The notes under the pieces were generated by a model. That model was not told the DNA's origin, made no database searches, and saw only the letters and a list, made by a program, of their open reading frames with translations. DNA of 54,143 nucleotides from a virus (lineage: Duplodnaviria > Caudoviricetes), in IMG/VR virus record IMGVR_UViG_3300048590_000145, positions 1 to 54,143 of that record. One strand, written 5' to 3'. The position numbers and the translations under genes are program-made. Positions 1-49,308 of the stretch are shown here, in pieces; position 1 is the first letter of the stretch, and each line of letters begins with the position of its first letter.

Positions 1-197
1 TCAGGATCCATGAGCCAGAGCACGGTGGAACAGATCGTTGAGGATGTGGTCGCCCTCTCATGGGAGGCGGACGCTCACCTCGCCATCGTGTCCAACACCT
101 GCACGCACTGGCTGCCTGGTGAGTTCAGTGTCGAAGCTGTGCTGCAGGCTGCCGAGTATGGCGGCACGCACTACGAGACACTGGCTCCACTATTCGA
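1..197 (+). repeat. Terminal overlap copy 1 (matches 53947-54143, 6 mismatches)
   Basis: Direct comparison; mismatches at 19, 39, 159, 177, 190, 192. Confidence 0.97.
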
Positions 198-6038: not shown

Positions 6039-7424
6039 ATGCCAGACATTCGTACCAAACGGGAGCTGAGCCAGTACGCAGTCAACTTTGCTACCAGCTT
6101 CTCACTCGTACGGTACAACCATGTGCTGTACATCCCGGCCGACTTTGAGACCGGGGAGATGGAGGTGACTCCCTTACCTGAACGCACAGTGTGGAAGCCC
6201 ATGTCTATGACCGCGGTGCAGCAATGGGCCATGCACCATTACGACACCTTGTTCGTGTCTGCCAGTGAGGAAGCCAGCTTCTTCTACATGGTGGGTCAGG
6301 CTGCACAGCAGGTGGATTTTCAAACAGACAGCCTGCTGATCCACACCACAGATGGGTTGAAAGAACTGAAAGGCGATGGCAAGTTGCACGATGCCACCGG
6401 CCAGTTCGTTCCGAACTTCCTGCCCGTCATGCTGAACGAGGATCCACAGGACAAAGCACATGTCCTCGATGTACTCAACGGATGGCTGGATGACGAGGAG
6501 GAAACCGCAGCGCTGCTGCGTCACCTCGCCACCACGCTTGCGCCTGACTGGTCAGCCGTCAAGTACGTCATGCTTCTCGGTGACGGGCGTAACGGCAAGT
6601 CCGTTCTGATGAGTATGCTGCAAGCCCTGTTCGGCTGGGAGAACTGCTCCCATGTCACCCGGCAGGACATCAGCAAGGCATCTCCTGTTGTCACCGAAGT
6701 CCTCGGCAAGTTGTTGAACGTCGTCTATGACGGTGTCGCTGAGTACCTGCGTGACTCCGGCAACGAGAAGTCTCTGATCGCAGGGGAACCCGTACCGATC
6801 AGGATGCTGTACTCGTCCACCTCCACATTGGTGCAGACCAACGCCTTGTTCATCGAAGGATTGAACAAGGAGCCGAAGTCCAGTGACAAGTCCTCAGCAC
6901 TTCAGGCTCGTATCGTACGGTTCTGGTTTCCGAACACGTACGCCGACGATCTGATGTTCAAGGACAGGATGCTGTCGAAGCCCATGTTAGGCGCCTTGCT
7001 GTCCCTGCTGATCGACAACTACGTCAAGAAGCAGGACAAGGCGGTCATGCTGGCACCCACTCGACGGTCGAAGGAACTGCAGTTGGAGCATATGCATTCC
7101 AACTCCTACGCACTGCAGTTCATTGTCCATGTGGATCACTCGGACCCGTTGGGTGCCGACAGTCTGCTTGGTATCGACTTCGCAGAACTGACCGCGCGAT
7201 TCATCTCGTGGCGTGTCAGTGAGGGCGACATTGCTTCATGGTCAGAGCCGGATGTCACAGAGTTGTTCCGGCCTTCTGTGAGGATTAGTCGTCAATCACG
7301 CCGTGTCCACGGCAAACCCCGAAAGATCAAAGTCGTCGAGGCTTTCAAGCCGGAGACAACTGCCTACCTGCAACTACTGAAAGGAGAGGATGCAGATGCA
7401 GACACAACCGTGGTGGATGACTGA
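6039..7424 (+). CDS. D5/P4-type SF3 helicase (primase-associated)
   Basis: Walker A LLGDGRNGKS, GKLLNVVYD, KSLIAGE, N..P..D.S.A..RI..FP pattern; possible C-terminal winged helix. Confidence 0.85.
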   Translation: MPDIRTKRELSQYAVNFATSFSLVRYNHVLYIPADFETGEMEVTPLPERTVWKPMSMTAVQQWAMHHYDTLFVSASEEASFFYMVGQAAQQVDFQTDSLLIHTTDGLKELKGDGKLHDATGQFVPNFLPVMLNEDPQDKAHVLDVLNGWLDDEEETAALLRHLATTLAPDWSAVKYVMLLGDGRNGKSVLMSMLQALFGWENCSHVTRQDISKASPVVTEVLGKLLNVVYDGVAEYLRDSGNEKSLIAGEPVPIRMLYSSTSTLVQTNALFIEGLNKEPKSSDKSSALQARIVRFWFPNTYADDLMFKDRMLSKPMLGALLSLLIDNYVKKQDKAVMLAPTRRSKELQLEHMHSNSYALQFIVHVDHSDPLGADSLLGIDFAELTARFISWRVSEGDIASWSEPDVTELFRPSVRISRQSRRVHGKPRKIKVVEAFKPETTAYLQLLKGEDADADTTVVDD

Positions 7425-8247
7425 TGAGTATTTCAGTGCCACACCGATACCCGCAGAGTTCGAACAGCACGCCGGACCTCACGGGATTGCTCTTGTCAAA
7501 GCCTGGCAAGACGGACGGACATCACGAGGATGGGGGCTGAAACCAACGGAGAAGTCTCCCGGATTCATGAAGTCGTACGAGTCGAACACCTTTCGATCGG
7601 ACATCGTCACCTTCGGGTACGAGTCAGGTCGGTGGAGTTTTGCCTTCGTGATGCGATCATTGCGCATGGTGTGTATCGACATCGACGGCAAGAACGGTGG
7701 CCTGGTCGAAGCCCGCAAGTTGGGCATGTTGCCTTACACACTGGCGGAGACCAGCAAGAGTGGCGATGGTTTCCACCTGTTCTACCTGACCAGTGATGAT
7801 CAGTGGGACAGTGAGACTGGCTTTGCCATGTTCAACGACCGGATCGCTTTGGAGCAGGGTGTGGACCTGCGTTCCGTTGGCTGTGTGTACCACTACAAGC
7901 AACAGCGGTGGAACACCCGTGCTCTGGCCGAACTGCCACAACATCTGAAAGACCGTCTCAATCGAGACAAGCAACGCTCGTCAGGAACCACTGACGAGAT
8001 CATCAAGATCCTGGATACAGGAGATCCTACGGAGGTAGCAATGATGCACGACACAATGATCACGGATCTGAACAAGCAGATCCCAGCCGGCCGGCGAAAC
8101 ACCACACTGTTCGCCATCGGTTCCCAGATGATGCAGGCACAGATCCCTGGCTGGCCGCGGCTCGTTCACGACCGTGCCCTGGCTCTCGGCCTGGACATCG
8201 AGGAAGCGGACAAGCTGCTGCACAACATCAAGAAGTACGGAGACTGA
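7390..8247 (+). CDS. Bifunctional primase-polymerase (Prim-Pol) with PriCT-like C-terminus
   Basis: CIDIDGKNG, TSKSGDGFHLFY, GVDLR, C-terminal GRRNTTLF. Confidence 0.85.
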   Translation: MQMQTQPWWMTDEYFSATPIPAEFEQHAGPHGIALVKAWQDGRTSRGWGLKPTEKSPGFMKSYESNTFRSDIVTFGYESGRWSFAFVMRSLRMVCIDIDGKNGGLVEARKLGMLPYTLAETSKSGDGFHLFYLTSDDQWDSETGFAMFNDRIALEQGVDLRSVGCVYHYKQQRWNTRALAELPQHLKDRLNRDKQRSSGTTDEIIKILDTGDPTEVAMMHDTMITDLNKQIPAGRRNTTLFAIGSQMMQAQIPGWPRLVHDRALALGLDIEEADKLLHNIKKYGD

Positions 8248-8616: not shown

Positions 8617-9180
8617 ATGAGCATGCTGGATGACAATGCGACGTTTCTTTCTGAGGCGGAAGAAGAGCTGAAGAGACGTTTCAAGAAGGAAGAAGCAGAC
8701 AAGCGTCGGCTACCGTCAAACGCTGCCGACGCCCCGTCGTCCGACAGGCTCGACCAGCTCGTACTCCCCGATGAGATGCGAGCGAAGATGCCCGTCACCA
8801 AGGACAAATATCTGGTGAGGGAAAACCCTCACCTGGTTCAGTGGGAGCGCGAGGTCCGTAAGTTTCTCAGGAACCTCTCGCCCGATCACGGTCACCGGGT
8901 ATCGGCGGTGATGGTGTACGAGTGGGCCACCGGGATCCGTATCGCCGACATCATGAAGTCGCCGGACAAGGTTGTCGGCCGGCTGCAGTCGTGGCGCTCC
9001 GACCTCCGCAAGATCAACAAGGTGTTGGAGTTCTACTTCGGCAAGCCCTACATGACGTACATCTGCGGGAAGAAAGTACCGAAGGCGTACCGGGTGAAGC
9101 CCGGGTACTACATCCGCCGGCACCGCCCGTACACCTTGACGCTGTGGGCCGAGTACACCGAGGGCGTGCTGTACCCGTGA
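8617..9180 (+). CDS. Hypothetical protein (basic C-terminus, possibly DNA-binding)
   Basis: 187-aa ORF with GAGG SD and phage-like codon usage. Confidence 0.8.
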   Translation: MSMLDDNATFLSEAEEELKRRFKKEEADKRRLPSNAADAPSSDRLDQLVLPDEMRAKMPVTKDKYLVRENPHLVQWEREVRKFLRNLSPDHGHRVSAVMVYEWATGIRIADIMKSPDKVVGRLQSWRSDLRKINKVLEFYFGKPYMTYICGKKVPKAYRVKPGYYIRRHRPYTLTLWAEYTEGVLYP

Positions 9181-10569: not shown

Positions 10570-12026
10570 GCCCACACTCCTGTCCAGTCTTCCTCGTAGT
10601 TCACTGACGCGGTGGACTGTCCGGCGTTGTCAAAAAATTTTCCGTTGAAGAAATCCAATTCCTTCACGGCCTGTACCACATAGCGCAGTGCGTCCATCAT
10701 GTGGCTGTACTTGTCGTGTAGCGGTTGCTGGGTCCACATCTGCAGCTTGGTGTTGAACTCGTACTTGTAGTTCTCCAAGCACTCGAGCAACCACTGGCAG
10801 TTTCCCGAATGGACGATGCTGTTGTACAACATCATGCGTGTCTGCTGGATGTCGGTGACAATCGAGAAGTCCCCAGACCTGGATCCCGGGATCTTCCACA
10901 CCTTGTTCGACTTGGCGAGCACTGCCACGTTCGGGAACCTCTGTCGCATCATGTCCGCGGGCGTGGTGTTGATCGCCTTCTCATGGTGCTCACCGTCCCA
11001 CGGGAGGATGATCGCAGCCAACTTGTTGAAGTACGGCTTCACCTGTAGATCGTCCACGTACTCCGGCAGTGCTTTGCCGTGTCCCTCGCCGCAGTCGTAC
11101 AGGAACAGTCTCCCGTTGATCCACTGGAACGCGATCCAACTGGTGGCGTCCGACTGGATCCCGGAGGAGCCGATGTCGAAGGCGACGTACACCGGATGGC
11201 CTGGATTTAGGTTGAACTCATGGACCCGCTTCTCCTCCTCCATCTTCATGTACGCCTCGCCGTACACCGCAGCGGCGTCCATCTCCTCGAAGGAGACGTA
11301 GTACTCCTGCTCGAACATCCGGTCGTTGCCGAACCGTTTGAGGTAGGTATCCCGGATCCGTTCAAGTTCTTCCGTGGTCAGGACCGGGGGCAGTCCTTCC
11401 CGCGTCATGATCTTGTTCAGGTCATCGATGTCCCTGATGATGACATCGGCCTCGGGGTTGTCCTTCATGGATTCCATCAACTGCCACAACGGATTCCGTC
11501 GTTTCCCTCGTGGCGTGCTGACGACCATCAACCGCTTGTCCTCTGCGCGGTTCTCAAGGATCGGCATCAGCCGGGGGATGGGATCCTCACGGGTGAACAG
11601 CGCCAGCTCGGTGATGGTGTAGTCCTGGAACGACGTACCCACACCGGCTTTGTCCTGTCCGGACTGGAAGTAGCCTTGCAGCTTCAGCCGGCTCTGGTTG
11701 GTGAACCGGCCCTCCATGACGGTGCCCTTCCAGTCCACTGTCTCCCCGGGTACGTTGTCCTGCAGGCCACGGATGTACTCCCCGGACTCCGGATCAATGT
11801 ATGTCTTGTCCCAAAGAATGTCCCGGATCATAGGATTCGAGAGGCTAATGTATACGCCCGTCGTCTTCGGAGTCTTGAGTCGGGCGTGACACTGCTCCAT
11901 CGATGCCGAGACATCCTTCCCCGTCTGCCGTGGCAAGACCGCGATCCCGTACCGATTGTTCCTCCACAGTCGGTGGAGTTCCTCCTGGTACGGGCGTGGC
12001 TTGTAGTAGACGGGGAAGGACGGCAC
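10566..12026 (-). CDS. terL: Terminase large subunit
   Basis: PRPYQ, Walker A LPRQTGKD, ITE, STPRG coupling motif, FEQEY, nuclease AFDIG and HMMDALRY. Confidence 0.93.
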   Translation of the reverse strand: MPSFPVYYKPRPYQEELHRLWRNNRYGIAVLPRQTGKDVSASMEQCHARLKTPKTTGVYISLSNPMIRDILWDKTYIDPESGEYIRGLQDNVPGETVDWKGTVMEGRFTNQSRLKLQGYFQSGQDKAGVGTSFQDYTITELALFTREDPIPRLMPILENRAEDKRLMVVSTPRGKRRNPLWQLMESMKDNPEADVIIRDIDDLNKIMTREGLPPVLTTEELERIRDTYLKRFGNDRMFEQEYYVSFEEMDAAAVYGEAYMKMEEEKRVHEFNLNPGHPVYVAFDIGSSGIQSDATSWIAFQWINGRLFLYDCGEGHGKALPEYVDDLQVKPYFNKLAAIILPWDGEHHEKAINTTPADMMRQRFPNVAVLAKSNKVWKIPGSRSGDFSIVTDIQQTRMMLYNSIVHSGNCQWLLECLENYKYEFNTKLQMWTQQPLHDKYSHMMDALRYVVQAVKELDFFNGKFFDNAGQSTASVNYEEDWTGVWA

Positions 12027-12028
12027 AG

Positions 12029-12454
12029 TTACTCGGCGGTGTAGGTGAAGACTGCCGCCGTCGACAGCTTCGACTCACCGTTGTCCACGACCAGGTCGTA
12101 GTCGCCGGCAACTTCATCAGGCACATCGACCTCAAGCTCGGTGGCACTGTTCACCACCGGAGTGAGCTCTGTTTCTCCCCACAGCACAGTGGACTCATCG
12201 ATGAACCCGGTGCCGGTGACAGTGACGGTGACGGGCCCGGTGCCTTCCACGGCCGTTGACGGGTCGATCTCAGAGACAGTTGGCACGGGCTCCTGCAGTC
12301 CGGTCAAGTCCTGGTACTGCTCCTTGCTGGACTTCTCACTCCGGTCGAAGTCGGCTCGTAACGCGGTGGTGGCCTGTGCGTTGTTGGCCGCGGTCTCTGC
12401 TGGTGTGGACCGCGCAGGATTGGTATAGACGGTGGCGTTGTGAGGAGTGGTCAT
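12029..12454 (-). CDS. Ig-like (IPT/TIG) domain virion protein
   Basis: PTVSEIDP...VTVTGTGF...V.WG...SATELEVDVP...GDYDLVV.N...FTY pattern. Confidence 0.75.
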   Translation of the reverse strand: MTTPHNATVYTNPARSTPAETAANNAQATTALRADFDRSEKSSKEQYQDLTGLQEPVPTVSEIDPSTAVEGTGPVTVTVTGTGFIDESTVLWGETELTPVVNSATELEVDVPDEVAGDYDLVVDNGESKLSTAAVFTYTAE

Positions 12455-12467
12455 CTTCGTGATCCCT

Positions 12468-13490
12468 TCAGATCTGCAGGTGTGGTAACCCTATTGTGCC
12501 GAACAATGTGGAATAGTCTTCCTTCTCCGCAGAACTGCCGGCTTTGGAAGGGATGCCAGCCTGGGGTGGGTCAGGCTCCTTGACGGAGTTACTGCCTTCC
12601 CCAGGCGGCGTGGTGGCCGGCTTCGGCTCGGGCTGTTTCGCTGACGGAGGGGTTTCCGTCTGCTTCTGCCGGAGCGCATCGATGATCGGCTGCACAGGGA
12701 TGCTGTACCCCTGCAACTTGCCATCTTGCCTGACCTCGTACGGCGTGGCGAGTTTGGCGAACTCGTCAGCCAGAGTCTTGTTGAAGTTCTTCGTGCCGGG
12801 GATCAGATCCTTGTTGTTCTTGAACAGATCGATCGAGGCATGAAGGGTTTGTAGTTGTGACCCGGACTCTTCAAGTTTCTGCTGTGTCGCCTCCTCGACC
12901 TCTTGAACGAGCAGACTGCGCACAGCCTCTTGCCATTCCTTCGCATCGTTGCTGTCGCGCAGGGTCTCCATTCCCTCCTTGCCAATAGCCGGCACCTGTG
13001 TGCCTACCAGCAAACGAGGGTGCGTCTCCAAGGCTTCGAAGTATTTCTCGTAGTCCTCACGGGCCTGATCGAAAGACTCCTGCTGATACTTCTTGATAAC
13101 GGTTTCCTCGAGTGCGCTGCTCAGCTTGCCGAGTTTCGGGAGGAAATCACTGGCATCGGCTGTCCAATCCGCGGGAAGATCTGTTGCTCCGCTAGGGGCA
13201 TCAGGCCGTTCAACACTTCCTGCAGCATCTCCTCCTGCGTCATCAGATGCAGGTGACTCTTCTGCCACTGCTGCTGTTGCAGGTTGTCCATCCTTTGCAG
13301 CGCCTGTGCCAGTGGAGTCAGTGCCTCCATCAGTAGCATCCGTTGCTGTAGCTTCAGTTCCAGCAGGAGCCGTTGCTCCCTCTCCCACTGCCTCTGCGCC
13401 TTCCTCTGGCGCCAGCGCATCCATGAGAGCGCCGAAAGCAGCATCCCCCATGCCCGGTAGATCCACGACTTCACGGGTGTCTTCACTCAT
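12468..13490 (-). CDS. Putative scaffolding/head assembly protein
   Basis: Acidic disordered N-terminus, helical middle, P-rich linker, short C-terminal helix; ORF certain, function inferred. Confidence 0.55.
   Translation of the reverse strand: MSEDTREVVDLPGMGDAAFGALMDALAPEEGAEAVGEGATAPAGTEATATDATDGGTDSTGTGAAKDGQPATAAVAEESPASDDAGGDAAGSVERPDAPSGATDLPADWTADASDFLPKLGKLSSALEETVIKKYQQESFDQAREDYEKYFEALETHPRLLVGTQVPAIGKEGMETLRDSNDAKEWQEAVRSLLVQEVEEATQQKLEESGSQLQTLHASIDLFKNNKDLIPGTKNFNKTLADEFAKLATPYEVRQDGKLQGYSIPVQPIIDALRQKQTETPPSAKQPEPKPATTPPGEGSNSVKEPDPPQAGIPSKAGSSAEKEDYSTLFGTIGLPHLQI
13121..13486 (-). CDS. Nested +1-frame gene, 121 aa, L/Q/M-rich helical protein
   Basis: GTGA coupling to upstream stop; host frame shows 52 of 66 A/T-ending codons over 13173-13370. 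Confidence 0.6.
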   Translation of the reverse strand: MKTPVKSWIYRAWGMLLSALSWMRWRQRKAQRQWEREQRLLLELKLQQRMLLMEALTPLAQALQRMDNLQQQQWQKSHLHLMTQEEMLQEVLNGLMPLAEQQIFPRIGQPMPVISSRNSAS

Positions 13491-14052
13491 TGCTACCCCA
13501 CTCGCGCTTCATCTCTTCCAGTTCCATCGTGAGCAGTTCCCGGTGCTCATCGCTGAACTCGAACTTGATGTTGTCGAGCAGGGAGGTCAGACCGGTCTGG
13601 TCGAAGAACATCTTGTGGACTTCAACGATCGAGGCCAGTTCGAGAGGAGCGTCACCATGGGTGCAGTCCCAGTCAAGCTCCCAGGACAGGATCACCTTCT
13701 GCCAGTTGATGATGACGTTGAGGTAGTGGATCGAGTTGTGCTCGACATCTTCCTCGGGGCTGGCGTAGTTCAGACATTCGTCATCGGTGTCGATCTCAGC
13801 CTGAAGGACTTCCCGGAGCTGGTCGATCTTGTCGTAGTACAGATCCCGGAAGTGTGGCATGTCCTCGAACAGGATCTGGGCATGAGCACTGATGATGCGG
13901 TTGGCCCATTGCGGGGTGATCCGCTCGGTGCGCACATCCTCACTGGACTTCAGCACAGCGGTCCAGACCTGCAGGATGGTGTGATAGTCCGTGTCCTCTG
14001 CTTCAGCAAGGATGTCTTCCACGGTCAGTTCGGCGTCGATGTTTTCAGTCAC
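13483..14052 (-). CDS. Acidic hypothetical protein, 189 aa
   Basis: GTG 14052 coupled to upstream TGA; ORF-track extension to 14127 unlikely. Confidence 0.8.
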   Translation of the reverse strand: MTENIDAELTVEDILAEAEDTDYHTILQVWTAVLKSSEDVRTERITPQWANRIISAHAQILFEDMPHFRDLYYDKIDQLREVLQAEIDTDDECLNYASPEEDVEHNSIHYLNVIINWQKVILSWELDWDCTHGDAPLELASIVEVHKMFFDQTGLTSLLDNIKFEFSDEHRELLTMELEEMKREWGSNE

Positions 14053-14786
14053 TTGATCTTTCCTGTCAGTTGAAGGTGCCGGTGCTCGGCCTGGATGGTG
14101 CGAATCACGGATCGGATGTCGTAGCACAGATCGTTCTCGACGTAGACCCGTTTGATGGTGTCAGGGACCAGCTCGCTGCCCCCGTAATACGCTTGCACAT
14201 CGGTGAGGTTGAATCCTTCCCGTCCGTCGTAGCAATGGATCTTGAACGGGAATCGGGGATCGGTGTAGATACCAACTTGGTACGAGGGCAGGGTGATCTT
14301 CACCTCGGCTGGGCGTTGAGTCTGGTCACCGGAAACCTCGAAGGTCTCGACGTACTCACCGTTCTGCACTGTCTCCGTGCGGACCCCGGTATCCATGTAT
14401 TTGAGGACACGCCGGCCACGGGGCTTCGGGTATGAAGGTTTGCGCACTTCCTCCTGGTGCCACTTGCGGCCTTTCTCGTCAACCCGGATCACCTCGTCGG
14501 GTGCCAGCGTGTTAAGCCGCTGACCGGGCAGTTCGTCAGGATCCGGTTCACTGACTCGCGGGATAGAGCGCTCTTCAGGTGCCGCCGTTGCCGGGGCAGG
14601 AGCAGGCTCAGGAAGCCCGAAGAACTCGGGGGAGGGTGATTGGTCCTCGGCCTGCTCAGGGGGCGTCTCTACCCGCCCCAGCTCCGCCTTGAGCTGTGCC
14701 ACGGTGTAGTTGCGGTACGGCTGGGTAGGGGTTAGCCCCGACGCCTTCAGTTCGTTGTAGAGGGCTGCCTTCTCAGCAGTGGACAT
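14049..14786 (-). CDS. Hypothetical protein, 245 aa
   Basis: AGGGAG SD; short N-terminal helical module (YTVAQLKAEL), P-rich linker, globular C-terminus. Confidence 0.8.
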   Translation of the reverse strand: MSTAEKAALYNELKASGLTPTQPYRNYTVAQLKAELGRVETPPEQAEDQSPSPEFFGLPEPAPAPATAAPEERSIPRVSEPDPDELPGQRLNTLAPDEVIRVDEKGRKWHQEEVRKPSYPKPRGRRVLKYMDTGVRTETVQNGEYVETFEVSGDQTQRPAEVKITLPSYQVGIYTDPRFPFKIHCYDGREGFNLTDVQAYYGGSELVPDTIKRVYVENDLCYDIRSVIRTIQAEHRHLQLTGKIK

Positions 14787-14825
14787 GTCGCTCCCTAGGT
14801 GGGTTCTGATAAGGATATGGCCTTA

Positions 14826-14930
14826 TGTAGTCACTGTAGTCAGTGTAGTCACCTGTTTTGGAAACTTCTACACCATATGTCGCACGAAAAGTTTAGAAAT
14901 GGGGTGACTACAGTGACTACACCGACTACG
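14826..14930. repeat. Iteron-like inverted cassette A (TGTAGTCA x3, 49-bp spacer, TGACTACA x2 plus one degenerate)
   Basis: Copies at 14826, 14835, 14844 and inverted at 14905, 14914, (14923). Confidence 0.9.
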
Positions 14931-17900
14931 TCCGCTCCCACTCCATGTCCTGTACGGGCCTTGGGATGCCGTTCGTGGAGTAGACATCGGCACCTTCCAG
15001 CACATTCCTGCCGTACTCGAAGGTCTCTATGCTGCCGTGCTCGTAACCCACGTTCACCGTGACCGGGGTGTAGCGGTACTGCACATGGCAGATGGATCCT
15101 GAGCCGGCTTTCCCATCCACGTTGCCAGCGAAGAAGTACCACTCCTTCATATCCCGGCGCACCAGGAGATGATCTTCCACGTCCCATGACATCGAGGTGG
15201 ACCTGTCCGGGGTCAGATCCTCGAACTGCTTCTCGATGCTGACGTTCTGCCCGTTCACTGTGCGACCGCGGATTCCGTACCGCATGGCTCCACTGAAATC
15301 GCCGAACATCACTGACACCTGTTGCAGGTGAGCCCAGGCATCGTGAGCCCGGTTGGCGCCCTGGGTGTTCGTCTCGAAGAACCAAGGGATGGGACGTTGC
15401 CCGACATTCCCGTCCTCCATGACGTAATCGTCCTGACGCGCGTCGGGGTCCAGGTAGTACACACCGTCAGGACGCATGACCCCGACATACACCCGAGGCC
15501 CGTACTCGAGGATCCGCAGCCCGGAGGCTTGGATCAAGAACCGGGACCAGGTGCCAGACTCCTTACCGACTGTGTCGTACACCCAGATCTCGTTGCCGTG
15601 ACAACCGTCTTCCACTGGAATCCCCCGAGGGTTGTTCACCAGGAAGTACAGCCGATTATCATGTACCGCACTCATGATCCAGTTCTTCGACTGCAACGAT
15701 TCCCACATGTTGGAGATGTCATCCGACATCGACTTGTGGTTGATGTTGTAGTTCTGCGCGGTGGACTTCAGCAGTGCACGATCAATAGGTCGGTACAAGG
15801 CGTTGTTGTGCACGAGTGCACCGAACGGAGCCATCGTCCCTGGCGTGTTCGTCGTCTCCTCGAATCCCATCACCTGCGCGCTGCCCGTCTGCGCATTGAT
15901 GTCAGCCGGCGTCATGTAGTAACAGATCGAAGTGCCGTCACTGCCGAGGCACAGGATCGTCAGTGTGTCCACGGACTGCGGGTTCTGCCACAGCACCACC
16001 GATCCAGGTAGGTGCAGGTTTCCCGAGGACAGCGTTTTCACGCCACCCCCTTTGCCGGAGGTGAACTTCGTGTACTCCCCCGGACGGTTCGATGACCATC
16101 GGATCGCACCGGGATCATCGGCATCACCGACCAGTACGATCCTGTCCGCTGCCACGATCCCTGTCCGGGCACGCGGGGGTTGAGAGTAGTTGGTGCGGTT
16201 GTCCTTCGTCGGCAGCATGGCTGAGTCGAGAGTGAATCTCCGGCTGGGAGTCACATTGATCCAGCCGCCCTTCTCGTACGGCAGCGAGTTGCCTGATAGC
16301 CGTGACGCCTGATCCGGGTACAACTCCCGTGACCCGGCGAACTGAGCTTCCACGGGTACCGGATCCTGGTCCGACCAGGAGAATGTGTACAGGTTCCACT
16401 TGATCGCACCGGCAGACAATGCTTCGGTGTACACCGAGGAGGGTACGACAGCCACCAACTGGTCAGCGCACAGATCAGCAACTTCAGTCGCCGTACCACT
16501 GGGCTCACCCGCAGCGTTGGGGACTTCCCATAGCCAGTTCGACTGAGGGCGTTTCATGCGGACCTCGGTGATCTTCGACGGCGCCGACTCACCGATCTCG
16601 TTCTCAAAGGTGTAGAAGTACCCCATCTTGTACTTGTTGACATCGGGGCCTCCGGTAGCGATAAGCGTATTCGCTGCCGGGGCCTCAGCAGTGGGAATCG
16701 CGGTGGGGTCCACCGTTCGTACTTGGATACTGGGGCACAGATGCGCAGCGCCAGGATTCTCCCATTGATGCACGAGCTGCGTCGTACTGACAGTGGAGCC
16801 GTCGAAGTACGTGCCAGCCGTACTGGCATCCGACTCGATCATTCCGCCGTCCAAGGCGAAGACCTGGTTAGGGCCGACATCGCGGATAGTGATCTGAAGT
16901 CCGGCAGCAACGCTATGCGTTGGGGCGATTCCACTTTCTGAACTGACACTGATACGTGTCCACGCCCCTGTGCCGGACGAAGCAGACGTAACCCCGGATT
17001 CAAGCTGGGTGCGATGCTGGTCATAGAGGAACAACTGAAGATCCGTTGTCTTCGCCACTCCGCTCAACGCTTTGATATGCATGGTGTTGGTCACCGGGCG
17101 TCCCGGAACCACACTGACACGGGCTGCCACGATCGTGATGTCCTGGTTCGGCCAGTACACCGAGGCGGACTGGTTGGCCGTTCCCGTCCAGTAGTAGCCC
17201 ACACCTGATGCACCGGAGAACATGTCCGTCGACTCGTTCGCACGGCACAGCATCACATTGCGAACCTTGACCCAGGACTGCTTCTTCTTCGTACTGTCAC
17301 CACCGATGAGAATCCGCGCAGTCACCGCGTTACTGGGTGCTTCGATGGCAGGAGTGACGTAACGGCCGGAGCGTGCATCAGGGAAGAACTTGATCGGATC
17401 GCCGATCTCGGAGCCGTTGTTCCGGTAGAACTGCAGTCGCACCCGGAGCAGGGCGTCGGCACTCAGGTCGAAATCGAAGGCCACCCGGTACTTGCGGCCT
17501 GCTTCGATGCCGGCCAGTTTCGCACTGCGGGCGAGAAAGACGTTCGTCCCCTTCTCGTCATAGATCCGCATGTCGTCCCCGACAGCGCGCAGGACAGGAT
17601 CCCCCAGGCCGGAATGCCAACCTTCGATACCTGTTGCTGACACGTTGTGCAGTGGAGAGGTGGCAAGGTTCGTACGTTGTGGCGCCGTCCACACTTTGAG
17701 CGATGTGCCACCGGCAGGAAGCGACTCTGCCCGTGTTATCTCCCATGAGGTGGTGGAGCCTTTCGTCCAGCCCGCGGTGCCTGCCTCGAAGCTGGGATTG
17801 ATCAGCTCGTTGCGCCGCACCGTGTACCCGAGCTTCGAGATCCATGCGGCTTCCGGGTGCATAACGACTGCCTTGTGGGTGTCTTCCCACTCCGGCGTGG

Positions 17901-18477
17901 TAATCGAGTTCATTCGTTTGGCGACCTTCTCCGCACCCACGGAGAACAGCCGTATCGATTCGCCGGCATCAGACAAAGCCAGGATCTTGTTGTCGATCTG
18001 CAAGTACGACACATGTTTCGTGGCACTCGAGAAGTTCAGTGTCACTACTCCTTGAGGAATGTAGAACCCGATCTTCGTATCCGTGATGGGGTAGACGATC
18101 TGGTTCGGGTCAGTGAGCAGCATCGCTCGGAAACCTACGGTGTCGTCTTCCTCACGGCACGCGAACAGCAACGCCTTGGAACCGTCATGCAGGTAGAAAG
18201 GTTCCATCGTGCCCACGACGGGACGATCAAAGGCAACACCGGGCGCAGCAACGTCGTCGTAGTGCATGTCCGGGGTGTCTATGTAGGACACGTACCGCAA
18301 CCCAGGGCGTACCGAGATCCCCTTGCTCCGATCCACCATGACGTTCTGCATGTCCCGACAGGACGTAGGATCAGACAGTCCTGGCGGATGGGCGGTGGAC
18401 CAGCCGGTGAACTGGCGCAGGTACGCCTTCGACAGCGGCCTGTCGATCGGAGCCGGTATGGATTTCTTGGCAGGCAT
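14926..18477 (-). CDS. Tail nozzle/tubular protein B-like with inserted carbohydrate-binding-like modules
   Basis: 1183 aa beta-rich; N-terminal QFTGW..NV..RPG, IRWSS motif; internal RNELINPSFEAGTAGW and RTNLATSP repeats. Confidence 0.65.
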   Translation of the reverse strand: MPAKKSIPAPIDRPLSKAYLRQFTGWSTAHPPGLSDPTSCRDMQNVMVDRSKGISVRPGLRYVSYIDTPDMHYDDVAAPGVAFDRPVVGTMEPFYLHDGSKALLFACREEDDTVGFRAMLLTDPNQIVYPITDTKIGFYIPQGVVTLNFSSATKHVSYLQIDNKILALSDAGESIRLFSVGAEKVAKRMNSITTPEWEDTHKAVVMHPEAAWISKLGYTVRRNELINPSFEAGTAGWTKGSTTSWEITRAESLPAGGTSLKVWTAPQRTNLATSPLHNVSATGIEGWHSGLGDPVLRAVGDDMRIYDEKGTNVFLARSAKLAGIEAGRKYRVAFDFDLSADALLRVRLQFYRNNGSEIGDPIKFFPDARSGRYVTPAIEAPSNAVTARILIGGDSTKKKQSWVKVRNVMLCRANESTDMFSGASGVGYYWTGTANQSASVYWPNQDITIVAARVSVVPGRPVTNTMHIKALSGVAKTTDLQLFLYDQHRTQLESGVTSASSGTGAWTRISVSSESGIAPTHSVAAGLQITIRDVGPNQVFALDGGMIESDASTAGTYFDGSTVSTTQLVHQWENPGAAHLCPSIQVRTVDPTAIPTAEAPAANTLIATGGPDVNKYKMGYFYTFENEIGESAPSKITEVRMKRPQSNWLWEVPNAAGEPSGTATEVADLCADQLVAVVPSSVYTEALSAGAIKWNLYTFSWSDQDPVPVEAQFAGSRELYPDQASRLSGNSLPYEKGGWINVTPSRRFTLDSAMLPTKDNRTNYSQPPRARTGIVAADRIVLVGDADDPGAIRWSSNRPGEYTKFTSGKGGGVKTLSSGNLHLPGSVVLWQNPQSVDTLTILCLGSDGTSICYYMTPADINAQTGSAQVMGFEETTNTPGTMAPFGALVHNNALYRPIDRALLKSTAQNYNINHKSMSDDISNMWESLQSKNWIMSAVHDNRLYFLVNNPRGIPVEDGCHGNEIWVYDTVGKESGTWSRFLIQASGLRILEYGPRVYVGVMRPDGVYYLDPDARQDDYVMEDGNVGQRPIPWFFETNTQGANRAHDAWAHLQQVSVMFGDFSGAMRYGIRGRTVNGQNVSIEKQFEDLTPDRSTSMSWDVEDHLLVRRDMKEWYFFAGNVDGKAGSGSICHVQYRYTPVTVNVGYEHGSIETFEYGRNVLEGADVYSTNGIPRPVQDMEWERT

Positions 18478-18484
18478 ACCGCTC

Positions 18485-19237
18485 CTAGAAGTTCGAGTGC
18501 GGGTGCAGGTGTTCCTGCATCTCGGGGATCAGACCGTTCTCCAAGGGCAAGATGAACTGGTTGCTGTACGGCATGTCGGTGTTACGGCTGTCACGCTCGA
18601 TCACCTGGTACATCAGATCCTTGTAGCCGGCTTCCAGTGTTTGCACTCGTGGCTGCATGATCGGGTCGGTCTGCGCGTAGTTCCATGCAGCCCTGGCAAT
18701 GATCACATCCGGGTAGTCGAAGTCGAGAAGCTGTCCACGGACACCATCCGGCACCTCTTCCCCTGTGGGGGGTAGCCGGAACATACGAGGTTCCCGCATG
18801 ACCGGGACGAAGATCTGCAGTCCTTCTTCGAAGGAGAAGAACCTACGCGAGAAGGTCAGTTGTTGCCGAGTCACTGAACACCACAGTCCCCGCATGTGCT
18901 CGTACTTGGACAGTGATTCCCGAGGAAGGAAGTACGCCCATTGCACAATGCTTGAGCCGTTCTTCAGCCGTACCGCGTCGTCATTGATGATGCGGGGACG
19001 CACGTTGGACGGCAGTTGCAGAATCTGCTCACCGGCCTTTGCTGCCCCGATGTTCAGTTCGGAAGCGTAGAACCCCCATTCGTGTTCCAGCGCATTCGCG
19101 CGTAGGGCCCTGTTGATCTGCCGGGTGATAGAGCGATACCTGTCGTACTCGGGCTCGTATTCCAGATCGAGTCCGGTCAGCAGCCCCAACACCTCGGCCA
19201 CGGCATCGTCGAGTGTCAGTTCGACTTCGATGTTCAT
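18485..19237 (-). CDS. Tail adaptor/tubular protein A-like
   Basis: 250 aa directly upstream of nozzle; HEWGF motif; positional inference. Confidence 0.55.
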   Translation of the reverse strand: MNIEVELTLDDAVAEVLGLLTGLDLEYEPEYDRYRSITRQINRALRANALEHEWGFYASELNIGAAKAGEQILQLPSNVRPRIINDDAVRLKNGSSIVQWAYFLPRESLSKYEHMRGLWCSVTRQQLTFSRRFFSFEEGLQIFVPVMREPRMFRLPPTGEEVPDGVRGQLLDFDYPDVIIARAAWNYAQTDPIMQPRVQTLEAGYKDLMYQVIERDSRNTDMPYSNQFILPLENGLIPEMQEHLHPHSNF

Positions 19238-19240
19238 CAG

Positions 19241-20440
19241 CTACCACTTCCTCAGACTGGCGCCTTCGGCACGGCCACCCTTTTCAATGGTGACAGCCGC
19301 AGCCAGGTTGGAGTTTGACTGCGCGCCTTTCAGCTGATCCATGCCCCGGTAGTTCTTGATCCAGTCGGGGGCTTCCTTCTGCTCGTACGATTCGTCCTGC
19401 AGTTCCGCCCAGTCATCGAAAGCATTGCCGGCTTGACGCCTGCGCAGTTTGTCCGCGGGCGTGCCGGACTTTCCCTTGCGCATCTTCTTGCCGGTGCCGG
19501 AGACGCCGATCAGCTTGTTGGAGGAGGACAAGGACGCGGCATTGGAGAAGCCCGTTCCGGAACCCTTGGTGTTCTTCAGCTTCTTCTTCGCCTTCTTGTT
19601 CTTGCCGAGCCGGGGGATCTTCGCCTCGTACTCCTCGGCGTTGGCGTACGCATCAGCCTGTGCCGTGCGCACCTGCCCGAGCTGGGTCAGCCCTTCACCC
19701 CGTGCTTCCAGGTAGTCACGCCAGATCTGCTCCTTCTCGCCCTCACCCGCGATCCAGGCGTTGGACAGTTTCGTCTTCGTATCCTCGTTCAGCCCAACGA
19801 CACCCTGATTGATGCTGGCGAGAGTGTCGTAGAACGCACGGTTGCCCTCGGCAGCATTGGCGTTCTGGTTGCGTGCGGCAATCAGCATTGCCTTGATCGT
19901 GTCGGACTCCCCGGCACCTTGGGTGAGGATTTGACCCAGGGCATCCTGACGTTCACGTACCAGGTTGGCAACCCCACCTTCCAGAGTGGCCGCGGTGGCT
20001 GTCTCATTGTTCTCCCCTGCAACCGTGTAGGTCTTGCCGAGTTCTGTAGCACTGGACGTGAGATCTGCGAGTTGGGTGTCCCGGGTCCGCGTGATGTCCT
20101 GGATGTCCTGCTTACGGCGCTCCTTCATCTCACCGAGCGCCTTCTTCAACGCTGACGCCTGACTGTTCAGGTTCGTCGCCTGCTTCAAGTAGCGCTTGCC
20201 AGTACGGTCGTCACGTTCCTTCTGCTGCTTCTCCGCCCTGCGCTGCGCAGACGCCACCGAGTTCTTCGCTGACGACTTCGAACTCTTGGACTTTGACGTC
20301 CTGGACGTTGACGGGCGGGACGAAGGCCGTGACGCGGGATTCGTCGATGTCGGGCGTGGCGCCGTTGACGGCTTACCGAGCACCGGGGCTTTCTTCACCG
20401 GGCGCTTGCCCTTCGGCCTGACAGGGATGGTGTTAGCCAC
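19241..20440 (-). CDS. Putative internal virion/ejection protein (basic termini, coiled-coil core)
   Basis: GTG 20440 after GGAGG; K/S-rich ends, long helical centre. Confidence 0.55.
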   Translation of the reverse strand: MANTIPVRPKGKRPVKKAPVLGKPSTAPRPTSTNPASRPSSRPSTSRTSKSKSSKSSAKNSVASAQRRAEKQQKERDDRTGKRYLKQATNLNSQASALKKALGEMKERRKQDIQDITRTRDTQLADLTSSATELGKTYTVAGENNETATAATLEGGVANLVRERQDALGQILTQGAGESDTIKAMLIAARNQNANAAEGNRAFYDTLASINQGVVGLNEDTKTKLSNAWIAGEGEKEQIWRDYLEARGEGLTQLGQVRTAQADAYANAEEYEAKIPRLGKNKKAKKKLKNTKGSGTGFSNAASLSSSNKLIGVSGTGKKMRKGKSGTPADKLRRRQAGNAFDDWAELQDESYEQKEAPDWIKNYRGMDQLKGAQSNSNLAAAVTIEKGGRAEGASLRKW

Positions 20441-21851
20441 GACGGCCTCCAATGTTCAACATCTCGATGATCTCATCCGGGGACCGGTTGGGTCTAGGTA
20501 CACCGTCGTTGCCAACCGCTTCCTTCGCACCGTACTGCTTTTCATTCATGGCACGCTGGTACGTCGTGCGATACCACTGCTTCTGCTCTTGCGGGCTGAA
20601 CTCGTGATCGATGAAGAACTGGCGGATCTCGGCCATCGGGTCTTTGATCGTCTCGTCCGGGATCTTCAGTGTCAACCAGGAGGATTCGTAGAACCTGTCA
20701 TCGGTCCATAGTGGTTGGGATACCTTACGGCCATCAGGCAGGACAACCTCTTGATATTCAGGTTTACCCTTATCCCTGATATGCCCGCCAAACCCGAATG
20801 GGATGTCCTTGATGTTCTCCTCGGTCACGGTGATCGGGTTGAGCGCAGTGTCCACCGACCAGAACGTCCGCTCAGCATCCGTCATAGCTGCTTCGATCGC
20901 CTCGACGTTCAATCGGACAGCCGACGAGTCAACTGCCGCCTGATTCTCCGGCGAGCGCAGCTGGTCATAGTTGGCGACAGTGTCAACCACTTGCATCCTC
21001 GGACGTCCATCGTTCACCCACTCCTGCTTGCCCTGGATCAAAGGTTCGAGGGGTTGCGCGGATGACAAGGTGAAGTTCTTCAACTCGTCGGCATCGATGG
21101 CCCGTTCGAGAGACAGGTACTCGTCCAGGTCTTGACCGACGGCTTTGAAGTTGATGCTCTTCAGCAGCTCCACCGTGTTGATGGCGATGGTGTCGGACCC
21201 GCCCTCTTTGCCGAAGATCTCCTCCACATCAGCGTTGTACTGGTTCAGCTGCGCTTCGGAGTATGCCGGAGTCTCGGTGCGCGTACCAGCCTTCAGATCT
21301 TTCTGGCGTGCTTGAACCAACCGGGTGTTGAAGTCGACCGCGGCTTTCTGATCGTCGTCCAGTTTGTCGTACTGCTTCCAGGTCAGCACGCCCTTCTGGG
21401 CTTCCGCCTTCGTCTTCTCCTTCTCGATGTCAGGCTTGTCATCGGTGGACTGCGCCGTGGAACGGTAGCCGGTCTGATTGGAGAGCGTATCGTCCATGCC
21501 GCGCAGTTGCAGCGCTGACAGCTCGTACTCGTACTCGGCCAGATCCCGCTTCTTCCGGTACTTCAGATCCTCCGGCGTCTCGATCTTCGTCGGTCGATCA
21601 GGCGCCGGGGCTGACCAGTTCGTATCGTTCAGCAGTCGTTGCTGACTGGCAGGCATGGTGTACGTGGACGGAGCGGGAACCGCTGTCACACCCGCTACCT
21701 CGGGAGGTGCCGGTAACAGGGGAGGCGGGCGGTACGAACTGGACGGTTTCTCGACCGGGGCCTTCGCCTGACCCCGGCCTCCCAGTCCTAGAGGTTTGGG
21801 CGCAGGGTCATTCGAACGACTGCCCGACCACGGGATGAGTTTGAAAGCCAT
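20433..21851 (-). CDS. Hypothetical virion protein, 472 aa
   Basis: GGAGG SD; P-rich N-terminus; within structural operon. Confidence 0.7.
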   Translation of the reverse strand: MAFKLIPWSGSRSNDPAPKPLGLGGRGQAKAPVEKPSSSYRPPPLLPAPPEVAGVTAVPAPSTYTMPASQQRLLNDTNWSAPAPDRPTKIETPEDLKYRKKRDLAEYEYELSALQLRGMDDTLSNQTGYRSTAQSTDDKPDIEKEKTKAEAQKGVLTWKQYDKLDDDQKAAVDFNTRLVQARQKDLKAGTRTETPAYSEAQLNQYNADVEEIFGKEGGSDTIAINTVELLKSINFKAVGQDLDEYLSLERAIDADELKNFTLSSAQPLEPLIQGKQEWVNDGRPRMQVVDTVANYDQLRSPENQAAVDSSAVRLNVEAIEAAMTDAERTFWSVDTALNPITVTEENIKDIPFGFGGHIRDKGKPEYQEVVLPDGRKVSQPLWTDDRFYESSWLTLKIPDETIKDPMAEIRQFFIDHEFSPQEQKQWYRTTYQRAMNEKQYGAKEAVGNDGVPRPNRSPDEIIEMLNIGGRRG

Positions 21852-21864
21852 GCGTCACACCTCC

Positions 21865-22641
21865 TCACAGCTTCATGATATAGGCGAGAACGTAGTACGG
21901 CGGCATGTTGTTGTGCGCCTGAGATGCATTCGCGGCGGTCGCATTGTTGATCGTATGCGAGTGAGGAGCGTTCGCCGCCTCCGACGGGACCAAGTCGTTC
22001 GCGGTACCGAACGCATGATTCGTCCAGTGGTCGTGATTGCCGTTCTGTGTGGTCGCCGCATTGTTGATCGACCCAGCACCTGTCACTCGTTTACCGTTCG
22101 GTGAGCCAAGAGCAACATCCTGCTGGTAGTCCAGGTTGTGCCCGTGGTTACCGTTCGGGTTCACGTAATGGTTGTGGTACCAGTGGTTCCTGTTGATGCT
22201 GTGGGAGTGTGGAGCATTGGCCGTTTGCATCGTGTGCGTGTGTACAGGTACGCCGGACTGCGCCCCGGTCAAAGTGACATTCTCTTCGCCACCAGCAGTG
22301 CCGACGGCCCGCGTGCCCCAGCCCAGCACGAACTTGTTCTTCAAGTCCGGGGTGCCATTCGTCCCGTCGCACAACGCCCAGCCTGCCGGAGCAGTTGTCC
22401 CAGACCACATCACGATCACACCTGTCGGAACGCCGCCGACGGATTCGGGATCGACCGCGGCCCACGTATCAGTCGCTGTGGTGGCGAGCAGTTTGCCCGC
22501 CGGAATGTTCGTGTCGGGTGTGTGGATCGTGCCGTTGTCCAACGCGATCAACGAGTTCTTCACCCATAGCGTGTGGTCGAAGTGACCCAGTTCGCCTTCA
22601 ACCGGATCAGCCGGCCACGGGGTGGGGAGCAGAGATACCAT
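21865..22641 (-). CDS. Tail fibre with tail-collar domain and HxH needle
   Basis: PTGVIVMWSG..PAGWALCDGTNGTPDL..FVLG; HTH/HSH/HNH/HGH/HDH repeats; HNNMPPYYVLAYIMK. Confidence 0.85.
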   Translation of the reverse strand: MVSLLPTPWPADPVEGELGHFDHTLWVKNSLIALDNGTIHTPDTNIPAGKLLATTATDTWAAVDPESVGGVPTGVIVMWSGTTAPAGWALCDGTNGTPDLKNKFVLGWGTRAVGTAGGEENVTLTGAQSGVPVHTHTMQTANAPHSHSINRNHWYHNHYVNPNGNHGHNLDYQQDVALGSPNGKRVTGAGSINNAATTQNGNHDHWTNHAFGTANDLVPSEAANAPHSHTINNATAANASQAHNNMPPYYVLAYIMKL

Positions 22642-27423: not shown

Positions 27424-27951
27424 TCATGAGCAATACGCTTTCCCACTTGTTGCTCCTGAGAATCGAACGATCACGGATGTGATGTCGACATATTCGATGG
27501 CGGCAATGAGCGCCGACCCAGCGCTGTCCACAATGGATACCGCCGGATAGTAGCCGAGTTCGTGCACCACAGTCCAGGTATCGTCTGCGACTGCTTGGGT
27601 GTGTACGTACGATCCAGCGGTTGATCCGTCCCCCGGAGGTCCAGGCGGTCCAGGCGGTCCAGGCGGTCCAGGCGGTCCTTGCGGGCCTGGATTCCCGGTG
27701 TCGATCAGAATGTCCGGAGCGGTTGTTACCTCCAACGGTGCATCCGGTTTCACATCTGCTTCGACGGTGACATCCACCGGAGTCAGTACAGATAGGTCGA
27801 TAACCTGTCCACTGGTCACATCGATGACATGCTCACTGGGTTGAGCAATGACGACGGCTGTTTCCCCTGCTGTCGTGTCGATGGTGACGTTCGCCGGAGC
27901 TTCAACAACAATCTCCACCCCCGAAGTGTCGTCCCCCGGGGGCGTGGTCAT
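27424..27951 (-). CDS. Collagen-like minor tail protein
   Basis: (GPP)n repeat; C-terminal HELGYYPAV..V.F domain. Confidence 0.8.
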   Translation of the reverse strand: MTTPPGDDTSGVEIVVEAPANVTIDTTAGETAVVIAQPSEHVIDVTSGQVIDLSVLTPVDVTVEADVKPDAPLEVTTAPDILIDTGNPGPQGPPGPPGPPGPPGPPGDGSTAGSYVHTQAVADDTWTVVHELGYYPAVSIVDSAGSALIAAIEYVDITSVIVRFSGATSGKAYCS

Positions 27952-47067: not shown

Positions 47068-47344
47068 CGACCAGTGGCCTCTCATCGGACAACGCGACAC
47101 CGCCAGTCTAGGGGCATCCCCGCCGCTTTGACAGCCACCCGGGGAACTCGTGTTCGCGGCGAAACCCTGCGACACCTGTGCGGCTCGCAGACTTTCCGAG
47201 CGGTGTCACTGCGATACGGCAGTAAATCCAGCACAGAACTCTGCGAGCCGCAACCTTCCGCAGGAATTACCACGCTGTCAGCATCCTCAGCATTCCCCAC
47301 AGGGCGCTATCCGCCCATTTCCCTCATGTTTCCAGGTCATCCGG

Positions 47345-47515
47345 TGTTTTAATGGAAACTTTTGTGTGAGGTTCCAAAAGATAAAATAGATACAAATAAC
47401 ACAGACTATACCCCCCCTACATATATATGTATATATGTAGTTATAGATAAACCTGAATCTCTTTAGTCTGGTGTTTCCATTTTAGCAATTCTCATTTCCA
47501 TTTTAGCAAGTTAGT
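47345..47515. promoter_or_regulatory. AT-rich divergent control region between late (-) and early (+) arms
   Basis: CTACATATAT/ATATATGTAG palindrome 47417-47440; TTTCCATTTTAGCAA direct repeat at 47474 and 47495. Confidence 0.65.
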
Positions 47516-47535
47516 CAACCGATAAGGAGGACATC

Positions 47536-47856
47536 ATGTCCAAGAAGCCACGGACGAAGAACCCCGTAACTCAGGCCATCCAGGCCAACATGCTCCACAT
47601 GCTCAACCCGCCGAGCGAACAAGACCGTGCCAAGGCAAAGGTCAAGGCAGCGCAGAAGCTCGCTGAGGTAGAGCAACTGCAACAGCTGTCAGCAACGATG
47701 GTCCTTGAGGCCATCCAGAACTCCCAGTTCAACATTCTGCGTCAAGCAGAGGAACTGGGGTTCACCGAGCAGCACCCGGTGTATCAGCGTGCAGTGCATG
47801 CTTACGCTGTTGGTACTGAGTCCGCAGCTCAGAACATGAAGCGCAAGCTCACGTGA
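47536..47856 (+). CDS. First early gene, hypothetical 106 aa
   Basis: TAAGGAGG SD; own terminator. Confidence 0.85.
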   Translation: MSKKPRTKNPVTQAIQANMLHMLNPPSEQDRAKAKVKAAQKLAEVEQLQQLSATMVLEAIQNSQFNILRQAEELGFTEQHPVYQRAVHAYAVGTESAAQNMKRKLT

Positions 47857-47862
47857 GGAACA

Positions 47863-47899
47863 GCCCTAGGGTCTTCGGACCTTAGGGCCTTTCCTTTTT
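47863..47899 (+). terminator. Rho-independent terminator
   Basis: GCCCTAGGGTC-TTCG-GACCTTAGGGC with UUCG loop and T-rich tail. Confidence 0.88.
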
Positions 47900-47905
47900 A
47901 CTCCA

Positions 47906-49268: not shown

Positions 49269-49308
49269 ACCTCTGTCTGGTGGTGACGTCCAACCTGTCA
49301 GGCGGAGC

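Follow-up and report, generated by a model that had tools for sequence, protein, structure and literature searches.

The window analysed here is the IMG/VR virus record IMGVR_UViG_3300048590_000145, a stretch of 54,143 bases, and our subject is a gapped inverted-repeat cassette that occurs in it twice, together with the phage's own SF3 helicase, the proposed reader of its repeats. The large terminase of the window shares 70% identity with Microbacterium phages of the genus Burrovirus and about 61% with cluster EK phages. The genome is laid out as in these phages, with two divergent arms around a non-coding centre at about 47.2-48.8 kb. The plus-strand (early) arm carries replication genes, which encode an AAA ATPase, a nuclease, a family A polymerase, a DEAD helicase, the SF3 helicase and a Prim-Pol. 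The minus-strand (late) arm contains a gene for a giant protein of 4847 amino acids (aa), then tail and lysis genes; past the first cassette, site A, come five genes, of which the last encodes the terminase. An earlier note on this DNA had labelled genes downstream of site A as 'scaffold'; no hit supported this label. The 661-aa gene adjoining the giant gene matched an Araxxi gene annotated as portal.

Anatomy and conservation of the repeat clusters

The pattern GTGTAGTCACC-N(40-60)-GGTGACTACA matched the window exactly twice, at 14843-14912 (site A) and at 48315-48384 (site B), with a 49-bp spacer in both, and gave 0 matches in 100 shuffles. The earlier note had described the cassette at these positions, with equal spacers, an inner inverted pair containing AAGTTTA, otherwise different spacer sequences and extra tandem 8-mers on the outside. 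We reproduced each of these observations; the note covered A and B and overlooked two further clusters, C and D, beside site B. Altogether, 16 8-mers of the GTAGTCAC type lie in four clusters, A at 14.8 kb and B, C and D at 48.3-48.6 kb. A genome-wide motif scan, which the note had suggested, found 19 copies of the 7-mer GTAGTCA against 4.02 expected (largest shuffle value 10), with 16 of the 19 inside the clusters. All four clusters have their forward copies on the left and their reverse copies on the right, with neighbouring copies 8-11 bp apart, and all four can fold as strong DNA hairpins (z-scores -5.2 to -7.5).

The left arm of site A (14827-14852, plus strand) consists of three tandem 8-mers, GTAGTCAC, GTAGTCAG and GTAGTCAC, which start at 14827, 14836 and 14845, a 9-bp step, and face the spacer. 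The spacer (14854-14902) has 49 bp and a guanine plus cytosine (GC) content of 36.7%, and it holds the inner inverted pair, GAAACTTCT at 14861-14869 and AAGTTTA at 14889-14895. The right arm (14904-14929, minus strand) also faces the spacer and is made up of 8-mers at 14904-14911 and 14913-14920 plus a degenerate copy, GTAGTCGG, at 14922-14929. Site B is built in the same manner, with two 8-mers at a 9-bp step on the left (GTAGTCAG and GTAGTCAC; 48308-48324, plus strand) and two on the right (GTAGTCAC and GTAGTCAT; 48376-48391, minus strand). Its 49-bp spacer (48326-48374) has 26.5% GC, among the lowest 0.01% of the 49-nt windows of the genome, which has 59.1% GC overall. The inner pair here is GAAACTTCT at 48335-48343 and AAGTTTA at 48360-48366. 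On both strands of the window GAAACTTCT occurred only in these two copies, each followed by AAGTTTA. The two spacers were otherwise barely alike, with a global alignment score of 7 or 3, within the range found between unrelated genomes.

In cluster C (48438-48489), a forward and a reverse 8-mer make a 15-bp stem with a 4-nt loop, and another two reverse 8-mers come after it. Cluster D (48587-48632) mirrors C and has one reverse 8-mer and two forward ones. The arms of C and D are 83% complementary, with 101 nt in between. As to site A, the earlier note had called its gap the only sizeable one in the late arm. By our own gene calls, on which these lengths rest, there are four longer intergenic gaps in that arm (199, 221, 251 and 257 bp, at 56-63% GC); the 139-bp gap that holds site A (45% GC) is the sole AT-rich one. 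The claim is therefore only partly right.

The central region has other small elements. Just left of site B, the segment 48090-48180 is dense in TGATG/CATCA words (e.g. catcgcttgatgacctcatcacctgatgcagatgatgaac). A 58-nt intergenic element at 47973-48030 is kept at 88-91% identity in Burrovirus genomes that have no other DNA similarity there; it contains a small hairpin, CTCAGG-CTAC-CTGAG, with compensatory changes in two of 10 pairs among five phages. A conserved hairpin, CCA-KGCG-TGG, is located at 48699-48725, in the stretch that leads from the repeat clusters to the first early gene, with copies elsewhere at 48680 in G001, 15672 and 15690 in G002, 53218 in G003 and 2054 in G004 (G numbers denote related genomes). 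Its lower stem covaries, four of seven pairs being changed on both sides among six copies, and the hairpin may serve as an RNA leader element or as a further protein site. A similar hairpin, TTCCCATG-cgaga-CATGGGAA, is scattered among the repeats of EK and Burro phages. An Rfam search of the central region returned sub-threshold hairpin look-alikes only.

Conservation in relatives had been named in the earlier note as a further check, and two sets of loci were available. Among the IMG/VR loci found through the gene downstream of site A, a tandem short motif was present upstream of the gene in all 17 listed (of 21 found), the 17 being those that include its 5' end. The terminase-anchored set had 47 rows, several of them the same virus from different samples, and four could not be judged as they meet a contig end. 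In 39 of the 43 evaluable loci, the window counted, a 7-mer was repeated at least three times upstream of the homologue of the 245-aa gene; no repeated 7-mer was present there in L064, L070, L092 and L129 (L numbers denote loci). The 7-mer varied among phages (GTAGTCA, GTAGACA, CTAGTCA, CTGGTCA, GCAGTCA, TGTGACA and two odder ones). Clusters stood at two loci, in the late arm and at the divergent centre, in all 10 near-complete genomes (the window, G001-G004 and G006-G010), and at one locus in G005, which is 72% complete. Each genome had two to four clusters, and short clusters of the C/D kind flank both sites in several relatives.

The distance between the innermost forward and reverse copies ranged from 51 to 77 bp across phages and was similar inside each phage (60/60, 62/71, 74/77, 51/51 and 60/67). 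The spacers of one genome were clearly homologous to each other, with scores of 22-34, whereas scores between genomes had a mean of -3.75 and a maximum of 9; with its score of 7, the window has the least similar within-genome pair. The two spacers were mutually flipped in G001, G002 and G004 and on the same strand in G003. These comparisons support the view of the earlier note that the cassettes are probably protein-binding sites and not the product of a recent duplication.

The GTAGTCA word was also seen in long head-to-tail arrays on three IMG/VR contigs of 100, 41 and 43 kb: L290 (9891-10036) and L311 (652-797), both with steps of about 22 bp, and L307 (2708-3168), with steps of about 15 bp. 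These array stretches had no match to the genes next to the cassettes in the family of the window, and L290 had only two weak hits to late-arm proteins. The arrays may be iteron arrays of other replicons.

The SF3 helicase and its residue 428

The proposed initiator is the 461-aa SF3 (D5/P4-type) helicase encoded at 6039-7424 on the plus strand. Directly 3' of its gene, on the same strand, is the gene for a Prim-Pol type primase/polymerase (7390-8247), which is likely the priming partner of the helicase. The helicase matched the Pfam family DUF5906 (E 1.3e-6) and TIGR01613 ('P4 family'; E 2.5e-14, 52.9 bits, below the curated cut-off of 108.7). An hhalign comparison aligned its residues 46-368 to residues 358-685 of P4 alpha with 90.8% probability. 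The assignment to the D5/P4 type made in the earlier note was thereby confirmed. The best PDB match was 7OLA (PriRep5), with E 8e-6 for the single sequence and 2.5e-11 for the profile.

After the helicase core, 93 C-terminal residues of the window helicase and 92 of P4 alpha were left unaligned. P4 alpha is described as having a winged-helix domain C-terminal to its helicase (PMC2777425, in the part available). Judged from the alignment, the C-terminal domain of the window helicase (residues 369-461; 7143-7421, plus strand) appears to occupy the position of this winged-helix origin-binding domain. It is the most variable part of the helicase, with a mean column identity of 31% versus 55% for the whole protein. 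Arg428 (codon 7320-7322) lies within a conserved RKSxR-xxG-xxRKVRV stretch, which looks like a beta-hairpin and would be a plausible reading element. The C-terminal winged helix of PriRep5 is described as reading the iteron with its wing beta-hairpin, which lies in the major groove (10.64898/2026.10.17.759575, in part). A language-model look-alike search of the C-terminus returned Pox_D5 clusters and one RFX_DNA_binding cluster, which we regard as a lead only; the available text of PMC2777425 equates these families with the P4 alpha-type winged helix.

The question of which protein reads the repeats was approached through 13 conserved protein families, taken from loci that hold both the protein and site A, and every alignment column was scanned. 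None of the 13 whole-protein trees tracked the repeat class. They required 5-10 class changes each (7-10 in 12 families with 13-20 rows, and 5 in a 1183-aa family with 12 rows), the minimum possible being 5 for the full 20-locus set and lower for smaller sets. The column scan gave two columns that were uniform in one repeat class, with helicase residue 428 on top and an N-terminal position of a 187-aa protein as the other. Residue 428 was Arg in all loci with T at repeat position 5 (GTAGTCA, CTAGTCA, CTGGTCA and GCAGTCA) and S, T, V, I, L or A where position 5 was A or C. Among 27 distinct loci, 14 combined Arg with T, one Arg with non-T, none non-Arg with T and 12 non-Arg with non-T (Fisher p 7.5e-7). 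This was the best of 836 residue-column tests on the helicase, and the runner-up reached p 6.9e-4.

L251, a consistent locus, was added later and brought the set to 28 loci, with T in 14 of 15 Arg loci and non-T in all 13 non-Arg loci; the metagenome scan contributed a single new helicase-plus-repeat pair. Seven of the eight loci gathered after the rule had been found obeyed it: L138, L140, L158 and L144 have Arg with T, and L161, L199 and L251 have a non-Arg residue with A. When the repeat state was placed on the helicase-core tree, eight changes were counted, suggesting that shared descent alone does not explain the match between residue and repeat. In this system, repeat sequence and initiator specificity seem to go together, and the C-terminus of the SF3 helicase, which the earlier note had listed for binding assays, is strengthened as the candidate.

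Beyond helicase residue 428, no column of the proteins scanned stood up, and two other candidates were rejected. The earlier note had also named the protein encoded at 8617-9180, which is the 187-aa protein of the column scan. Asp at its column 47 at first fitted the GTAGTCA class (8/9), and then failed on new loci (P in L138, A in L140 and S in L158) and on the CTAGTCA class. The hypervariable early genes at 47536-51077 were ruled out as source of a shared binder, since they have no homologue even in G002, which has the same repeat.

Candidate origins and competing explanations

We propose that the cassettes are iteron origins or initiator-loading sites for a self-loading SF3 helicase, and we consider this the probable explanation. 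As read from the sequence, all four clusters are most likely iteron arrays for the phage's own helicase, with A and B as origin-type loading sites; these two could be independent origins, or one could be an origin and the other a helper similar to crr (the 'cis required region') of P4. The 8-mers would be recognised by the C-terminal domain of the helicase, whose Arg428 would touch the base pair of repeat position 5. One hexamer would assemble on each arm, the AT-rich spacer between the arms would be melted, and the neighbouring Prim-Pol would prime synthesis. The palindromic clusters C and D would supply extra binding sites beside the central cassette. Binding of the repeats by the helicase, melting of the spacer and the start of replication at these sites are steps that we infer. 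In favour of the proposal, the anatomy fits the published definition of the origin of Staphylococcus aureus pathogenicity islands (SaPI) and the annotated repeats of P4.

The short repeats of a SaPI origin are described as numbering six to twelve, with a roughly central AT-rich region, one hexamer being thought to load per side (PMC9371898, in the text available). Each side has two or more iterons, opposed in direction to those of the other side, and the winged helix in the C-terminal domain of the SF3 Rep helicase binds them (PMC9371898; 10.64898/2026.10.17.759575, both in part). In the window, too, an AT-rich region is flanked by short opposed repeats, with two or more per side (3+3 at site A, including the degenerate copy, and 2+2 at site B). 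Some repeats are inverted within one half in both systems, and the SF3 helicase itself is the initiator, as proposed for the window. The differences are that the repeats have 8-9 nt in the window and 5-7 nt in SaPI, and that the spacer has 49 bp (51-77 bp start-to-start in relatives), as against the 102-bp AT-rich centre of SaPI5. In addition, the window genome has two loci and a separate Prim-Pol as its primase, and it belongs to a lytic-looking phage, while SaPI is a satellite.

In the P4 record, the same 8-mer occurs at ori and crr, about 5 kb apart, in both orientations and at 9-11-bp steps, and both sites are needed in cis according to the annotation of crr. The window similarly has an identical 8-mer in both orientations at two separated loci. 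The crr unit has two forward 8-mers at a 9-bp step, then about 35 bp of AT-rich DNA, then reverse copies, which is the design of the window cassette; the P4 analogy drawn in the earlier note held in this respect, and the helicase cores are homologous. In P4, by contrast, a 120-bp direct duplication makes up crr, and ori lacks the arrangement of a symmetric cassette. The C-terminal domains of the two helicases have no detectable sequence similarity, and alpha has a fused primase, of the DnaG type according to PMC2777425 (in part). Compared with these known origins, the window system differs in that its cassettes are far from the helicase gene, stand as two symmetric copies on roughly opposite sides of the circle, are flanked by short palindromes and evolve in concert.

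Similar designs occur in more distant systems. In herpes simplex virus (HSV) oriS and oriL (UL9) and in the simian virus 40 (SV40) core origin (T antigen), inverted sites for the initiator helicase flank an AT-rich centre. Such origins lie between divergent transcription units, HSV has more than one per genome, and the SV40 origin overlaps promoter elements. Only the design is analogous here; hosts and protein families are unrelated or distantly related. In iteron plasmids and lambda ori, repeated short sites for initiators of the RepA, pi or O type adjoin an AT-rich unwinding element. Their repeats, unlike those of the window, are for the most part direct, and they use an initiator distinct from the helicase together with a separate loader.

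Several results weigh against the origin proposal. The profile of the helicase C-terminus gave an hhalign probability of 2% against the C-terminal domain of P4 alpha and showed no sequence similarity to it, it had no match among PDB chains, and Pfam searches of 31 helicases gave DUF5906 only and nothing for the C-terminus. The residue rule has one exception, L170/G006, which has Arg and yet mostly GTAGACA repeats, with a few GTAGTCA interspersed. Moreover, the count of eight contrasts on the helicase-core tree depends on weakly supported branches. Well-supported branches gave only four independent contrasts (about 3.6 in the same way and none opposite; sign test p 0.125), so the covariation is strong by raw counts and by its prediction of new cases and is not proven independent of descent. 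The SaPI origin lies directly downstream of rep, whereas the distance to the helicase gene, which ends at 7424, is 7.4 kb for site A (starting at 14827) and, round the circle, about 12 kb for site B. Four cultured relatives (Araxxi, examined as a whole genome, and Burro, Akoni and TinyTimothy, examined over the first 50 kb each) had a central cluster only, with other 7-mers, and no late-arm site, so the second site is not universal in the wider family; the central cluster of Araxxi keeps the 60-bp geometry and the 9-bp step. Finally, site A is always just upstream of one gene block, and the spacer orientation follows local transcription in three of four informative genomes, both of which would suit a promoter too.

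These last two points lead to an unlikely alternative, in which the cassettes are promoters with operators, the spacers serving the early arm (B) and the block from the 245-aa gene to the terminase (A), with regulation as their main or sole role. Such a role could coexist with that of an origin. SV40 T antigen is a replication helicase that also acts as a regulator, and it offers a model for a helicase C-terminus as an operator-binding regulator. Both sites are upstream of co-directional gene blocks, and site A is kept upstream of the 245-aa gene in the 39 of 43 loci given above. The homologous within-genome spacers are flipped in G001, G002 and G004 so that each follows local transcription, and many relatives have TATA-like centres and a TAGGGG-like motif beside the downstream arm. 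However, the central spacer of G003 points away from the early genes, and spacers differ widely between phages with the same repeat (the between-genome mean given above). The cultured relatives without site A have a plain TATAAT-containing gap at that place. A scan for sigma-70-like -35/-10 pairs (16-18 nt apart) found none in 14600-15100 and none inside B, C or D, with an E. coli consensus that actinobacterial promoters may escape. The covariation, furthermore, implicates a replication protein and no known regulator. Contigs of four public runs over 12000-18000 (three metatranscriptomes and one probably DNA) were sparse and fragmentary, with none spanning the cassette, and thus were uninformative. 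The only sigma-70-like site of the central region is at 47433-47405 on the minus strand, upstream of the giant gene. It falls in an AT-rich segment (47340-47520) with an alternating CATATATATGTATATATG run and two copies of TTTCCATTTTAGCAA 21 bp apart, which is likely a late or giant-gene promoter region; Araxxi has a similar TATATA-rich block in the corresponding place.

The remaining alternatives have much lower probability. It is very improbable that the cassettes are a functionless palindromic mobile or recombination element (a miniature inverted-repeat transposable element or a gene-conversion tract) copied between two intergenic sites. Spacers that are far more alike within a genome than between genomes, and whose orientation can flip, would be expected of it, but the positions are fixed over dozens of diverged relatives, the tandem arrays that make up the arms covary in sequence with a protein residue, and a genome has only two to four clusters. 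More improbable still is a role as packaging (pac) sites for the small terminase subunit, with site A serving the nearby terminase gene. The large terminase gene follows site A at 2.8 kb, in the same direction of transcription, and we found nothing beyond position for the packaging site offered by the earlier note; relatives are reported as circularly permuted, which fits headful packaging (PMC7302621, in part). The larger repeat set is nevertheless central, about 21 kb from the terminase gene along the shorter arc of the circle and 36 kb from it inside the window. No column of the terminase or of the 94-aa and 98-aa proteins downstream separated the repeat classes (best accuracies 0.87-0.92), the covariation lying instead with the helicase. 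The least probable of those we considered is an N4-style hairpin promoter for a virion or phage RNA polymerase, possibly within the 4847-aa protein, which the earlier note had raised as a promoter pair. The hairpin folding of all four clusters and a giant gene of unassigned function are in keeping with it. On the other side, no RNA polymerase family was found by Pfam in the 41 open reading frame (ORF) translations scanned, the giant protein had no RNA polymerase match in Pfam, PHROGs or PDB, and a hairpin needs no tandem copies outside its stems. The relatives are also stated to have no similarity to N4 RNA polymerases (PMC7302621, in the part available).

The origin proposal can be carried further, although we hold this extension to be tentative and rather doubtful. 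The helicase and its origins would be a private lock-and-key pair that is often re-keyed, with the origin copies kept alike by gene conversion, with selection for replicon privacy between co-infecting relatives, and with the late-arm copy coupling the morphogenesis genes to replication. The wing residue 428 (Arg or non-Arg) and repeat position 5 (T or A) would have toggled together four to eight times in phages that are close relatives. By analogy with SV40 T antigen, the coupling through the late-arm copy may reflect a helicase that doubles as a regulator.

Genome context and significance

The first and last 197 bases of the window (1-197 and 53947-54143) repeat each other within an ORF, with an identity of 97% and not 100%. 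Such an overlap within a gene indicates that the genome has about 53.9 kb and that the window is a circular permutation of it. The overlap does not look like true terminal repeats; it resembles a wrap-around in the assembly of a circularly permuted population. A search for tRNA genes was negative. The 4847-aa ORF (32632-47175) has no informative domain, and its function is also left unassigned in the available text of a paper on relatives (PMC7302621). The protein gave a weak DUF6861 hit in Pfam and weak PHROG matches (lysis or unknown function) at residues 199-325, and no sequence match in PDB. The first seven or so early-arm ORFs at the centre (47536-51077) form a hypervariable region, the rest of both arms being conserved; tblastn at E 1e-3 matched none of these ORFs in Araxxi or in five related genomes. 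The minus-strand ORF 27424-27951 contains a 9-bp sequence, CCAGGCGGT, that is tandemly repeated four to five times at 27632-27685. A megablast search of 14000-22000 against phage records found nothing beyond a 39-nt match.

The replication origin is so far undescribed for cluster EK Microbacterium podoviruses, the Burrovirus group and their uncultured relatives. In a whole-text term scan of the 2020 survey (PMC7302621), inverted repeats came up only for other clusters, and the EK/Burro section had no such repeats. Our literature search found no work on EK/Burrovirus origins or on actinobacteriophage iterons, and gave one EK2 genome announcement for the subfamily name. The best-supported known kind for these cassettes is the iteron origin of a self-loading SF3 helicase, as with SaPI Rep and P4 alpha, to which the window system would add a specificity rule. 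This reading supplies candidate origins, a named initiator and a testable rule of one residue and one base; taking GTAGACAC as the comparison 8-mer to GTAGTCAC, the Arg428 rule implies a differing preference between the two. If true, the recognition by a wing in the major groove described for PriRep5 would gain support from natural variation, and the cassettes would provide parts for Microbacterium replicons. The self-loading helicase design of SaPI and P4 would then extend to lytic actinophages.

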